32,000 nucleotides of DNA from Nanobdellota archaeon (lineage in GTDB: Archaea > Nanobdellota > Nanobdellia > Woesearchaeales > JAUYGA01): assembly GCA_030690755.1 (NCBI GenBank), contig JAUYGA010000030.1:1-32000 (forward strand). The letters are read 5' to 3'. Below, piece by piece: positions 4,317 through 32,000 of the stretch. The first letter of the stretch is position 1. Each line of letters starts with the position of its first letter. Below the pieces are notes generated by a model. That model was not told where the DNA came from and searched no databases. It worked only from the letters and a program-made list of their open reading frames with translations. Position numbers and translations under genes: made by a program.

Positions 4317-5579
4317 TCAAGTTTTTTGGTTAATGATCCATTTCCATACGGGCATTATTGTAATTTTTTTATTCTTGATATTTATCTCATCTGCTTGCTC
4401 ATAGGTAAGCAACAGTCCTTTGTTCAGCTTGAATTTATCCATTGCTTCTAATAACCCATTCACTTCCCTCTCCTTATTCTTTTCATCCAACAAATGGCAC
4501 ACCTGTATGCTTTCTCTGATCTTTGTTCCATCTTTGACAATAAAGTCGCATTCATTTTTGCCGACGAAATAGTATGTTTCTTTTTTCGCTCTTTTTAGTT
4601 CTATAAAAACAATGTTTTCCAGTATCCTTCCCTTGTTTTCAGAGAAGTTCAGGCCAGTTATTTTATGGAAGGCCGAGTCGACAATATAGATCTTTCTCGC
4701 CGTGTTCAATTGTCTTTTTGCAGAGAAGTCAAATCTCAGAAGTTCGAAAAACAGATATGAGTTCTGCAAGTAAGAGATGTATTCTTTCACAGTTATTGCG
4801 TTTGACAAGCCAAGGCTTTTCTTAAGCGAATTATATGTGAATTGCGATGAAAGGTTCGTCGCCAATAAGTTTACGAGTTCCTTTAGTATTTTCTGTTTCT
4901 TTATGGCGTATCTGGCTATTATGTCCCTATAAAGAATGTTCTCATAGATTGTCCTTATATAATCATCATCTTTGTTTTTCAGATATTCAGGCATGCCGCC
5001 TTCATTTACAAAATATTCAAAGTTTTTTATTATTCTGATTTTTTTTTCAAGAACATATGCAGTATTTTTTTCAATCTTTATTTCTTTTGAATCAAGATAC
5101 TCTGAAAAAGAGAATGGATAAACTTCGAAGGCCTTATATCTGCCTGTTAATCTGGTTCCTAATTCTTTGCTGAGCAGGGAGGCATTAGAGCCTGTGATGA
5201 TTATCTTCTTGCCATTATCCTGAAGTCGTCTTACAAATGTCTCAAATTTTTCTATGTTTTGTATTTCATCGAAAAAATAGATTTTCGGTATTCCATAAGC
5301 TTCCATAAGCACCTCGTTAAGCAGCTCAAAATCCTGGGCCCTGAAATCTATGAATCTTTCATCTTCAAAATTGACATAGCAGTAATCATCTTTCTTTTGC
5401 ATTACCTGTTTAAGCAAAGTGGATTTTCCGCTTCTTCTGACGCCTGTTAATATTATTATGCGGTTATCCTTGAAGGAGTTCAGAATATCGGCTAGAATGG
5501 TTCTAGTAACTGTTTTTTCAATAGTGATTGTATTCTTTTGCTGAGCAATAACTTGCCTGAGAGTTTCTTTCTGTATCAT
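4317..5579 (-). CDS. AAA-type ATPase of the archaeal ATPase / DUF4143 family (COG1373-like)
   Basis: It has a Walker A motif (GVRRSGKST) and a Walker B-like motif (IYFFDEIQ). The length and C-terminal architecture are typical of the DUF4143 family. A TATA-like tttatatataaa lies about 25 nt upstream of the ATG. Confidence 0.7.
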   Translation of the reverse strand: MIQKETLRQVIAQQKNTITIEKTVTRTILADILNSFKDNRIIILTGVRRSGKSTLLKQVMQKKDDYCYVNFEDERFIDFRAQDFELLNEVLMEAYGIPKIYFFDEIQNIEKFETFVRRLQDNGKKIIITGSNASLLSKELGTRLTGRYKAFEVYPFSFSEYLDSKEIKIEKNTAYVLEKKIRIIKNFEYFVNEGGMPEYLKNKDDDYIRTIYENILYRDIIARYAIKKQKILKELVNLLATNLSSQFTYNSLKKSLGLSNAITVKEYISYLQNSYLFFELLRFDFSAKRQLNTARKIYIVDSAFHKITGLNFSENKGRILENIVFIELKRAKKETYYFVGKNECDFIVKDGTKIRESIQVCHLLDEKNKEREVNGLLEAMDKFKLNKGLLLTYEQADEINIKNKKITIMPVWKWIINQKT

Positions 5580-29238: not shown

Positions 29239-30099
29239 ATGGAAAATTACATTACCATAGAGATGCTTGAAGAAAACAGGCCTTTATTAATTGGAAGAAT
29301 ATTTACAGAAATGCAGCTAAGCATATTGAAAAAAAAATTACAAAAAAAACCTTTGAATTCCAACGAGAAAACGTATTATTATAAGTTTATTAAGCCAAAA
29401 ATTCGCGCAATGATGGCCTTCTTCAACATTAATGAGCTAAACGTCAATGGCAAGGAATTTATTAAAGAACAACGTTCGGAGGAGGCTATACAGATAGTTC
29501 ATAAGCTGGAACAAAAACATAAAGGCAAAAAAATCATCCTTTCAGGGTCATTCTTATTCAATAAAACATACAATGATGTTGATGTATTTATTTTTTCAAA
29601 ATACGATAAAGAGGATTATCAGAAAGGTAAGATTCATGTTACGTTCTTGCCTGAATCTAATCTTGGTTCGTTATTTTTTAACTCATTATCTAAAATTAGC
29701 GTAAGTAATTTCAACTACACTGCAAAGACGGAGTTTGACATAGGATTAAATAGCGTGTTGCAAACATACGAATTATTAATTAATGCAATTCTAAATAAGG
29801 AAGATCATGAAAAGAATCTCAGAGACTTCATCCTGCAAACAGAATATATCTCTAAAGGCGTTGTTTTGAACCCCAAACAATTATATTATACTCAAGAGAA
29901 ACTTTCACGCAAAAATCTCGACATTTTGTCCAATACGTTTATTAATTCGTTGACATTAAGCTATACTGCAAAAACTTTAAAGACAAAACTTAAAGCGCAG
30001 GTTAATGATTACAAAAAATTATTGATAGAATACAAGAATGCTAAGAACCTGCCGATATATATTGATACATATTCAAAGGTGATTTCGCTTGCAAACTGA
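29239..30099 (+). CDS. nucleotidyltransferase-domain protein (minimal NTase core with N-terminal and C-terminal helical regions)
   Basis: It has an NTase signature (LSGSFLFNKTYNDVDVFIF, i.e. GS-x9-13-DxD). Confidence 0.6.
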   Translation: MENYITIEMLEENRPLLIGRIFTEMQLSILKKKLQKKPLNSNEKTYYYKFIKPKIRAMMAFFNINELNVNGKEFIKEQRSEEAIQIVHKLEQKHKGKKIILSGSFLFNKTYNDVDVFIFSKYDKEDYQKGKIHVTFLPESNLGSLFFNSLSKISVSNFNYTAKTEFDIGLNSVLQTYELLINAILNKEDHEKNLRDFILQTEYISKGVVLNPKQLYYTQEKLSRKNLDILSNTFINSLTLSYTAKTLKTKLKAQVNDYKKLLIEYKNAKNLPIYIDTYSKVISLAN

Positions 30100-30406
30100 C
30101 GAAGCCAAAGCATTAATAAACGCGATTTTGGGGTCTGATGTAAGATTTGATGGGCACTTCGATAAATGTTTTTCTAATATTAAAGACGCTCAGCAAGAAG
30201 AGATTATTGAATGGGTTAAGGCATGTAAAGAGCTAAAGAGCAGTCCAATACAATCAAAAACCAACAGTGAGATGATAGGATTTGTAAAGCGGATAGGAAG
30301 CAACCTTAGAGCAATACTAACTAAAGAGAAGAAAGGATATTTTATTGAATTATTCCTTGACAAGCATAAATATTATGAAACAGAAATGAAAAAACTCGGA
30401 TTCTAA
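30089..30406 (+). CDS. hypothetical protein (105 aa), overlapping the upstream NTase gene by 11 nt
   Basis: This is an ORF-track entry. The overlap suggests co-translation with the NTase gene. No motif is recognised and no Rx4-6H HEPN signature is seen. Confidence 0.4.
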   Translation: MQTDEAKALINAILGSDVRFDGHFDKCFSNIKDAQQEEIIEWVKACKELKSSPIQSKTNSEMIGFVKRIGSNLRAILTKEKKGYFIELFLDKHKYYETEMKKLGF

Positions 30407-30471
30407 AAATATCATGCGCCGACTTATTCTCGTAATGCTTTTTATATTCTTTCTCTTCTTCTTTCATTTTC

Positions 30472-30550
30472 CTGTGTTTTATGAAATGGTTGCACGCAAA
30501 ATAAGATACTCCAACAAACAGGACGGCCAATATTATGATATTACAATTCT
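30472..30550 (-). pseudogene. relic copy of the dedA 3' end (direct repeat R1)
   Basis: A gapless hand alignment with 31700-31778 gives 63 of 79 identical positions. The relic translates as ...AVLFVGVSYFACNHFIKHRK, against the dedA C-terminus ...AVLLVGVSYFVYHHFIKHRK. Confidence 0.75.
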
Positions 30551-31015
30551 TATAGTTTCTCTTTGTATTTTTATTATCAATTCTTTTACTCGTTTTAGCT
30601 CGTTCAAGTCTATGCTTGTTTCCACGCCGTAAGTTGATGTTTCTCTGCTTTCTCTTATTGTCGGATTTGTTATGCTTTTTTCAACATCCAATGTGTCGAA
30701 TTGTGTTACTAAGTCTTTATCTAATTCAATTTTTCCTTCATCGATCAGCGTTAGTACTGCTGTTACAGTGCATGCCTGGTTTTTTGAGATATAACCATGC
30801 TTTGCAAGTATTGCCAGAAAGCAGTGATAGATAGAATAAAACCCCACATTTAGGGCCCAGTCATACATTTTTTGTTTTTCAAGAGCTTGTACAACTAGGT
30901 AATTATGTTCTGACTTTTTTATATGCTTTCGAGCTAAATCCATGTCGGGTTTTGCTTTTACAAGTCTCTTTGGCTCGCTTAGACACCATTTCAGGTGTTT
31001 GTCTGCTTGCGGCAT
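30533..31015 (-). CDS. HEPN-domain protein (partner of the upstream MNT)
   Basis: It has a helical profile and a C-terminal RESRETSTYG segment (the R-x-x-R-x-x-x-x-Y type seen in archaeal HEPN domains). It overlaps the upstream NTase gene by 25 nt. Confidence 0.65.
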   Translation of the reverse strand: MPQADKHLKWCLSEPKRLVKAKPDMDLARKHIKKSEHNYLVVQALEKQKMYDWALNVGFYSIYHCFLAILAKHGYISKNQACTVTAVLTLIDEGKIELDKDLVTQFDTLDVEKSITNPTIRESRETSTYGVETSIDLNELKRVKELIIKIQRETIRIVIS

Positions 31016-31626
31016 TTTTTTATTACCTCAGCGTATTTTTCAGGGTTGTGAAATATTAAATTTTCTGATAGTATGCTGTAAAATATCTTGTCTTCCTTGT
31101 TTGATGCAATGTCTTTTTCAGTTATTTCCACATAGCGTATTGGTTTTTCCACCAATCCTGAATGTCTTATTTCGTTTTTGATTTTTCGTATTTCATCTGT
31201 TTTGCTTTTGTCATAAATCAACAGGACATCAATATCATCATACTCTCTGCTTTTTATTGATGAGCCGAAAACCAAGCCGGTTTGTGCGTATGAGTTGAAT
31301 TTTTTTAGGCTGTGCAATGCCACTGTGAGCCATTTTGGAAATTCCTCGAGGCTCAAAATATACTCGATAAATTTGATTGCTAATGGATTGCTGTAATTGT
31401 ATGAAAAATATGACGCATTGCCCATATCCTCCTTGATTAATATATTTTTTTCTGTCAAAAGGTGGCACAGCTTGTTTGCATGGGCGTGGTTAATTTTCAG
31501 TATTTTAGCCAACTGTCTGGCATTATATTTCTCTCTGTAATGCTTGAATATGTATTTGGCAATCTGAATTTCTATTTTTGTGAATTGTATGTTATTAGCA
31601 GTCATATGTATGCTATAAACATACAA
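30991..31626 (-). CDS. wHTH plus minimal nucleotidyltransferase (MNT) protein
   Basis: It has an HTH-like segment (ARQLAKILKINHAHANKLCHLLTEKNIL) and an NTase signature (LVFGSSIKSREYDDIDVLLIY). The true start is possibly MTANN at 31605. Confidence 0.7.
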   Translation of the reverse strand: MYVYSIHMTANNIQFTKIEIQIAKYIFKHYREKYNARQLAKILKINHAHANKLCHLLTEKNILIKEDMGNASYFSYNYSNPLAIKFIEYILSLEEFPKWLTVALHSLKKFNSYAQTGLVFGSSIKSREYDDIDVLLIYDKSKTDEIRKIKNEIRHSGLVEKPIRYVEITEKDIASNKEDKIFYSILSENLIFHNPEKYAEVIKKCRKQTNT

Positions 31627-31683
31627 AGATATTTAAATGTTTCGGTCAAAAACCATTTTTACAGTGTTGGCAGGTATTTGCTC

Positions 31684-32000
31684 TTACTCGTTTATTTTTC
31701 TGTGCTTTATGAAATGGTGGTACACAAAATAAGATACCCCGACCAACAAAACTGCCAATATTATTATGTCAAGAATCTGGCTGTATTTGAGTATTTCATC
31801 CCAGTTACTTTTCAGGTAAAATCCGACAACTGTCAGGAATGTGTTCCATAATCCTGCGCCCAAAACAGTGTAGAATGAGAATTTCCAGATATTCATCTCA
31901 GCGATTCCTGCAGGGATAGATATCAGATGCCTGACAACAGGTATGAATCTGCTGATAAAAATAGTCGGACTGCCATGCTTTTTGAAGAAACTATGGGTCC
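31684..32000 (-). CDS. dedA: DedA-family membrane protein, C-terminal part (the gene runs off the right edge)
   Basis: The reverse translation contains RFIPVVRHLISIPAGIAEMNIWKFSFYTVLGAGLWN, a typical DedA/SNARE-associated segment. Confidence 0.75.
   Translation of the reverse strand, partial: THSFFKKHGSPTIFISRFIPVVRHLISIPAGIAEMNIWKFSFYTVLGAGLWNTFLTVVGFYLKSNWDEILKYSQILDIIILAVLLVGVSYFVYHHFIKHRKINE
31700..31778 (-). repeat. direct repeat R2 (functional dedA 3' end) matching R1 at 30472-30550
   Basis: See R1. The two copies are 1228 bp apart and bracket the MNT-HEPN pair. Confidence 0.75.

Follow-up and report, generated by a model that had tools for sequence, protein, structure and literature searches.

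A two-gene MNT-HEPN-type cassette bracketed by copies of a dedA 3' end in a DPANN archaeon, and the recurrent footprint of its relatives

Displacement of gene 3' ends is said to have been described in 2009 by Jackson and colleagues for Rhs/CDI-type loci (CDI, contact-dependent inhibition), as later work on such loci relates, and integration of e14 or phage 21 into icd of Escherichia coli reportedly leaves a duplicated, alternative icd 3' end, an observation credited to Hill and colleagues in 1989. Toxin-antitoxin and small defence cassettes are among the most mobile archaeal genes, and the movement of isolated two-gene modules without a recombinase is rarely visible in sequence. Here we describe a locus that appears to preserve the scar of such an insertion. 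It lies in a stretch of 32,000 nucleotides (nt), hereafter the window, which comprises bases 1-32000 of the 36.4-kb contig C229 (JAUYGA010000030.1) of a Nanobdellota archaeon. It consists of two overlapping genes, one for a winged helix-turn-helix (wHTH) nucleotidyltransferase (NTase) of the minimal nucleotidyltransferase (MNT) type and one for a HEPN-fold protein, bracketed by two copies of the end of dedA.

In the 3'-end displacement of Rhs, CDI and type VI secretion system (T6SS) effector-immunity loci (Kirchberger et al. 2017, PMC5361080), as in the reading favoured here, the module brings its own upstream copy of the anchor, the resident 3' part is left as an orphan downstream without a change of orientation, and the process requires no dedicated recombinase; arrays build up when it is repeated, comparable to the tandem loci L005 and L045 described below. 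The difference is that the anchor in those systems is the toxin gene and the payload a variable tip with its immunity gene, whereas the cassette described here, a complete and autonomous payload of two genes, uses an unrelated housekeeping or membrane gene as its anchor and has DPANN archaea as its hosts. The e14 and phage 21 insertions at icd share with this locus an element-borne 3' end that completes the gene with mostly synonymous differences, and a native end that forms a direct repeat on the far side, but e14 has its own integrase and always uses the same site, whereas the present cassette has no adjoining integrase and has relatives at many targets. In gene content, the cassette follows HepT-MntA type VII toxin-antitoxin systems and PDC-M05, an Archaea-enriched candidate defence system of NTase and HEPN proteins that is not yet validated (PMC12988326), in placing an NTase gene with its catalytic motif first and an overlapping HEPN-fold gene second; it departs from HepT-MntA in the N-terminal winged helix of the NTase and in the HEPN protein, which has an invariant R-E-x-S-T-Y-G instead of Rx4-6H. 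Integron gene cassettes, those with toxin-antitoxin genes included, are likewise small promoter-poor or self-contained units of one or two genes that occur in many contexts and sometimes in repeat-separated tandem arrays, but here neither a conserved attC-like end nor a nearby IntI occurs, and the flanking repeats copy the local target.

The bracketing elements are the following.

31684..32000 (-): 3' part of dedA, encoding a 205-amino-acid (aa) VTT/DedA protein (Pfam VTT_dom, E = 1e-13; nearest homologue 66% identical); the full gene, read from C229, spans 31684-32301 of the contig, and the window ends at 32000
31678..31778 (-), core 31678-31767: functional repeat copy (A1), made up of ~27 codons at the end of dedA, the TAA stop at 31684-31686 and a further 6 nt, from repeat search, codon alignment and BLASTN
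30450..30550 (-), core 30450-30539: relic copy (A2) of the dedA 3' end, putatively displaced, from repeat search, codon alignment and comparison with DedA proteins
30536..30548 (-): putative novel junction between the right end of the cassette, whose homology ends near 30546-30550, and the displaced dedA end, whose homology begins at 30539; the breakpoint can be placed only to within this interval

One strong repeat was found within 30300-32000, in which positions 30450-30550 and 31678-31778 match in the same orientation at a spacing of 1228 nt, with 78% identity and no gaps. By direct count the identity is 63/79 over 30472-30550, exactly as a preliminary description of this DNA had obtained by hand, 79/101 over 30450-30550 and 86/121 over 30440-30560, and BLASTN of flank against flank returns 90 nt at 81% (E = 2e-19). 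The homologous core extends from codon -27 of dedA to +2 relative to the stop (31767-31678), with identity dropping away on both sides. Searched against the whole 1.66-Mb genome, the relic matched the dedA end alone (71 nt, 84.5%, E = 1e-8) and no third copy, and the dedA end in turn matched only the relic. Considering these E values and the presence of only two copies in the genome, the repeat arose neither by chance nor as a common intergenic repeat, the latter being a reading raised in the preliminary description that can now be set aside. Logan contigs of the source groundwater run (records 3 and 4, from the same sample and a different assembler) cross both junctions with 0 differences; no cassette-free variant was seen among the contigs of this run, which cannot show absence.

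The relic still translates like the end of dedA, as had been noted, reading ...IIILAVLFVGVSYFACNHFIKHRK in the dedA frame against ...IIILAVLLVGVSYFVYHHFIKHRK in dedA itself; at the position of the dedA stop it has GAA rather than TAA, and the frame continues to 30342. This frame is open for 62 codons (30342-30530, minus strand) and overlaps the 3' end of a convergent 105-aa gene; the native dedA allele may have had a longer K/E-rich tail, or its stop may have been lost once the end was displaced. Within the 27 codons before the stop, 11 of the 15 differences between the two copies fall at third positions (73%) and 9 of the 15 differing codons are synonymous, an excess with P = 0.002 against a uniform distribution and P = 0.025 against the ~45% third-position share expected under neutral decay of one copy. 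When nine loci of the cassette family with coding repeats were combined, selected because their repeats overlap an open reading frame (ORF), the differences were distributed 13/10/41 over the codon positions (41/64 at the third, 64%), with 37 synonymous and 21 non-synonymous codons (P = 5e-7 against uniform, 0.0017 against the 45% decay model), and all nine pairs aligned without gaps. The relic peptide scores 100 against the resident dedA end (self-score 132) and at most 65 against 119 other DedA proteins, implying that it derives from a very close dedA. At a sibling locus downstream of aRF1, the TAG stop and trailing bases of the relic resemble those of the population allele L130, and the TAA stop and trailing bases of the functional copy resemble those of L129. 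Because the differences are mainly at third positions, the two copies look like alleles that each evolved as a working gene end rather than like a duplicate decaying in place.

The cassette between the copies has these parts.

30991..31605 (-), or to 31626 if begun at an upstream TTG: wHTH-minimal nucleotidyltransferase, MNT-like, 204 aa, stop at 30991-30993 (motif, Pfam, PADLOC and AlphaFold2, AF2)
30533..31015 (-): HEPN-fold protein, 160 aa, stop at 30533-30535 inside the relic (Pfam, PDB profile, AF2, Foldseek and alignment)
31606..31677 (-): left end of the cassette, a spacer with a putative archaeal BRE/TATA box (BRE, TFB recognition element) TTTAAATA at 31631-31638 in plus-strand numbering and, at 31585-31626, TGTATG/CATACA palindromes over the ATG; conserved in ~70 aligned loci, with an inverted repeat and a DNA fold z of -3.3

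Only these two genes, both on the minus strand and overlapping by 25 nt, lie between the repeat copies, and the HEPN stop is within the relic; both points had been made before and were confirmed. The NTase motif G-S-S-x7-D-x-D, in which G114, S115, S116, D124 and D126 are invariant in 11 homologues, fits the MNT catalytic motif G-[GS]-x9-13-D-x-[DE]. The protein matches PADLOC PDC-M05A at E = 6e-10 (5.9e-10) and Pfam Polbeta at E = 9e-4, below the cut-off, and AF2 predicts that residues 10-69 adopt a winged-helix topology (H-H-H-strand-strand, pLDDT 74-89), with low confidence in the NTase part of the model (pLDDT 59). For the HEPN-fold protein, no Pfam match was significant (HEPN at E = 0.015, below the cut-off), the match to PDC-M05B is weak (E = 0.018), and a profile built from ten homologues has as its best PDB match the HEPN protein AF0298 (2hsb, E = 0.047). 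Its AF2 model (pLDDT 82) retrieved mostly HEPN proteins at the top of a Foldseek search, led by 2hsb (prob 1.0, TM 0.79) and followed by 1ufb, sacsin HEPN and 1wol. The invariant residues are R121-x2-R124-E-x-S-T-Y129-G (R121, R124, E125, S127, T128 and Y129), and no His follows either Arg by 4-6 residues in 10 homologues. The earlier MNT-HEPN label is thus upheld at the level of fold, and the canonical Rx4-6H motif is absent. The 25-nt overlap is kept in all intact loci, and the predicted complex of the two proteins reaches ipSAE 0.39 against 0.02 for the best control, 'weak support' at a mark met by 58/80 solved complexes and 2/110 mismatched pairs. From motifs and models, we read the pair as a predicted MNT-HEPN-type toxin-antitoxin or defence module of a non-canonical subfamily.

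All of the ~70 cassette loci aligned on the start codon have the BRE/TATA box (consensus CGTAAAGTTTATATA) and the TGTATG/CATACA palindromes, found in the window at 31585-31638, which likely represent a putative promoter for a leaderless transcript and a putative operator for the wHTH domain. A scan of the locus for bacterial promoters and terminators was uninformative, the host being an archaeon. In a subset of cassettes (L063, L065, L101, L107, L109, L081 and others), an extra conserved element of ~60-150 nt is located about -60 to -200 nt from the MNT ATG, with the core GGCACACTCACGTAAAAAGCAGTAAGAATC and a GC-rich stretch beyond it, and may be part of a longer cassette version or a separate repeat. 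At the other end, no sequence conservation was detected beyond ~15 nt after the HEPN stop across ~60 loci. The window HEPN protein ends in ...RETIRIVIS where its relatives have ...RETIR(I/V)(L/V)(N/G/A)E, so that the last two codons and the stop are off the family consensus; the junction with the relic therefore lies within the last two HEPN codons. A microhomology of 2-4 nt (AAT/TAAT) is possible at this junction.

Homology between the window and diverged cassettes from two other runs of the same study ends at ~30546 and ~31612. When 40 genomes of the order were searched at the DNA level, the cassette was recovered by itself in three other families, with 67-69% identity and next to different genes each time. 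GTDB genomes contributed 13 loci and JGI metagenomes 80 loci with NTase proteins 63-75% identical. The cassette occupies at least 55 non-redundant DPANN (Woesearchaeota-labelled) loci, each with a different gene neighbourhood, and no integrase was seen beside the cassette loci inspected. The wHTH-NTase/HEPN pair is a discrete, self-contained, horizontally moving cassette of ~1.1 kb, in line with the earlier suggestion that it was acquired as such. Its GC content (0.33-0.37) is similar to that of the flanks, and a compositional island was ruled out on these grounds.

To estimate how often the footprint occurs, each locus with enough flank was screened under strict proximity rules for direct repeats between the two cassette flanks, with same-length shifted windows elsewhere in the same contigs as controls and near-duplicate loci removed by hand. 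Tight flanking repeats were present in 16 of the 55 non-redundant loci (~29%) and in 2 of the 163 control windows (~1%; Fisher P = 4e-9), indicating that the scar preserved in the window recurs in a share of the more than 50 independent loci. The repeats in these 16 loci are 20-97 nt long and 81-100% identical, and wider flanks include longer or more distant ones, e.g. 138 nt (L061) and 305 nt (L025). The repeated sequence differs in every locus and is therefore target sequence rather than part of the element. Often it corresponds to the 3' end of an upstream gene in the same orientation, reaching the stop or a point within a few nt of it, as for aRF1 (L112), a 354-aa protein (L104), a 1079-aa protein (L072), L066 and L085. 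In L025 it comprises trxB with a whole 83-aa gene, in L095 and L073 the end of a convergent downstream gene, and in L037, L070 and L005 a promoter or 5' region. The junctions range from -7 to +184 nt of the HEPN stop. At two sibling loci the repeats, of 48 and 60 nt, are 100% identical; exact-protein look-ups of the genes flanking them returned the same arrangement only, with no empty site.

At two loci, L005 (137-173 / 1366-1402) and L045, which equals L137 (320-388 / 1669-1728 / 2904-2963), tandem cassettes are separated by the same repeat. Each array has two different wHTH-NTase/HEPN-type pairs in a row with the same 37-69-nt repeat before each, and judging from this layout the arrays look like sequential insertions that re-used one anchor. 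An AbiEii gene adjoins the L045 array. The flanking repeat of L056 (3387-3456 / 4592-4661) is a GC-rich, hairpin-like sequence of 70 nt ending in GGCTGGCTTTT, which may represent a terminator or the point where a small RNA gene ends, and not a protein-gene end.

More distant relatives of two sibling loci retain the uninterrupted gene order. In G152 the 83-aa gene comes directly after trxB, and in L130 and L132 only 7 nt separate aRF1 from an MFS-like gene. The third aRF1 strain, L129 (88% DNA identity), has a different pair of 142 and 117 aa, and its homology breaks 8 nt past the stop. The region after the aRF1 stop thus has three contents in three related strains, an MNT-HEPN cassette with a relic and a 161-aa gene in L112 (3452-5448), the unrelated 142- and 117-aa pair in L129 (3156-4060) and nothing in L130 (4586-4632). 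Owing to these varied contents, gene termini can be regarded as recurrent insertion points, and they are probably among the few places that tolerate insertion in such compact genomes.

The assembly containing C229 amounts to 1.66 Mb in 267 contigs with 36% GC, and its source sample is a groundwater metagenome. C229 encodes TFB, a family-B DNA polymerase, ribosomal protein S19e and further archaeal genes; the relatives' genomes used for comparison, of 0.6-2.1 Mb, all belong to other families of the same order, and the related cassette loci come from records labelled Woesearchaeota or Nanoarchaeota. Given this gene set, these families and these labels, the host is a DPANN archaeon without a close sequenced relative. 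The closest DedA in a search of 5.8 billion proteins is 66% identical, and a dedA homologue occurs in only 7 of the order's 151 genomes, where its identity is 55% at most and the gene order is not shared. Many of the named best matches to dedA (58-68% identity) are bacterial, some from candidate-phyla-radiation lineages, and dedA itself may have been acquired horizontally.

How the repeat came to bracket the cassette can be approached in several ways. We consider it reasonably probable that incoming DNA carrying its own dedA end and the cassette displaced the resident end, through one-sided homologous and illegitimate recombination or through a Campbell-type insertion. The cassette would have entered on DNA of a related lineage in which it was already located just downstream of dedA; homology in dedA would have served for recombination on one side, and the other end, in the last HEPN codons, would have been linked by illegitimate joining to the resident dedA, ~27 codons ahead of the stop of that gene. 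Alternatively, a circular molecule of dedA end and cassette would have integrated by a single crossover within the dedA homology. By either route the incoming allelic 3' end would complete dedA and the resident 3' end would be shifted downstream of the cassette as a non-functional relic, with no dedicated recombinase gene adjoining the cassette. The duplication would be tolerated because dedA stays intact, and selection would shape the outcome, since joins further downstream would delete neighbours, joins further upstream would disrupt the gene itself except where the donor end restored it, and compact genomes would probably not retain insertions close to a gene end that left the gene unrestored. 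The variable junctions and repeat lengths fit illegitimate joining better than a precise enzyme, and illegitimate recombination facilitated by homology was proposed for displaced 3' ends in T6SS and Rhs loci (PMC5361080). The preliminary description had also supposed that the incoming DNA supplied a replacement 3' end, and both the third-position bias of the differences and the closeness of the relic to the resident dedA support this. Such a route, whether by one-sided homology with illegitimate joining or by single-crossover integration, would offer a concrete and testable way for cassettes to spread in compact DPANN genomes, would extend 3'-end displacement from bacterial polymorphic-toxin loci to ordinary archaeal genes, and would make the displaced gene end a practical marker for dating and tracing such transfers in metagenomes.

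If instead the insertion itself had doubled ~90 nt of the resident dedA end, by widely staggered nicks, template switching or replication slippage, with subsequent decay of the downstream copy, the layout would resemble a target-site duplication. The fully identical repeats at two sibling loci would then be expected just after the event, and repeats do abut the cassette in a third of the loci. Decay, however, should affect all codon positions equally, which disagrees with third-position shares of 64% in the pooled loci and 73% here and with nine gap-free pairs; repeats of 20 to ~300 nt at such scattered junctions are unlike one enzymatic stagger, and the aRF1-locus relic has its own stop type, shared with another population allele. 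We regard such in-place duplication as unlikely. Coding-type divergence would suit two long-functional genes, that is, a second, downstream dedA of which the cassette replaced all but the last 27 codons, but no second dedA was found in the genome, the relic resembles the resident end far more than it does any of the 119 homologues, and the same footprint stands beside many unrelated single-copy genes such as aRF1, which have one copy in relatives; a paralogue remnant is accordingly highly improbable.

The preliminary description had proposed site-specific integration into the dedA terminus, while stating that no integrase was visible, and the latter holds for the whole 36-kb contig C229, which has neither a PF00589 match nor another integrase. 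An integrase of the tyrosine or serine type, supplied in trans or deleted since, working on a circular element whose attP mimicked the dedA 3' end as for e14 and phage 21 at icd in E. coli, would produce the observed architecture, with a gene-end duplicate in direct orientation, an element-proximal copy that completes the gene and mostly synonymous differences, and five tyrosine recombinases (PF00589) are encoded elsewhere in the genome. Against it, the two genes and their promoter fill the space between the repeats, so that an internal deletion would need ends that coincide exactly with the two repeats; the last two HEPN codons are cut by the right junction; the DNA after the HEPN stop has no conserved att-like sequence; no tRNA gene occurs near the repeat; and the sibling repeats, taken from many unrelated targets with variable lengths and offsets, exceed what one att specificity could produce. 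Integration of this kind is therefore very unlikely, and this part of the earlier proposal is not sustained. A tRNA or structured-RNA target was rejected after searches at the locus. An insertion sequence or transposon does not fit the two-gene content, the lack of a conserved right-end terminal sequence able to act as an inverted repeat, or the variable offsets and lengths of the repeats (20-97 nt, or 138-305 nt in wider flanks), and an integron cassette does not fit the lack of any conserved, attC-like sequence past ~15 nt after the HEPN stop in ~60 loci. Quite unlikely, too, is the idea that the family is a new recombinase-less archaeal mobile element with a dedicated insertion mechanism, driven by its own wHTH-NTase or by a host enzyme recruited to the promoter/operator end; if true, the cassette would be placed at gene termini while tens to hundreds of target nt are copied, rather than riding passively on general recombination.

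Several observations weigh against displacement of the resident dedA end by incoming DNA. No close relative of this genome was present in any collection searched, hence no empty dedA site or parental allele was available for comparison. The relic, with no stop at the dedA stop position, copies a functional end imperfectly. Taken by itself, the window gives the codon-position argument no more than moderate significance, and the allelic pattern could also follow from in-place duplication with later homologous replacement of one copy. Single-crossover integration would be poorly served by 90 nt of homology at 81% identity; 18 short cassette contigs had no terminal overlaps that would indicate a circular intermediate, and no viral or plasmid carrier was found, with no relative in IMG/VR.

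A further two-gene module adjoins the relic on the opposite strand.

29239..30406 (+), and L003 1512-2694: convergent two-gene module encoding a 286-aa NTase-like protein and the 105-aa protein, likewise mobile, with a 67% DNA homologue in G038:C13 between unrelated genes

The copy in G038:C13 is situated between genes for proteins of 330 and 446 aa, which by eye resemble dapA and glutamine synthetase. No flanking repeat was found around this module in the window. Three further genomes match the last ~107 nt of the module (30306-30412) at 76-78%, and the CGTAAAGTTTATATA box of the MNT-HEPN cassette recurs in the promoter of the module.

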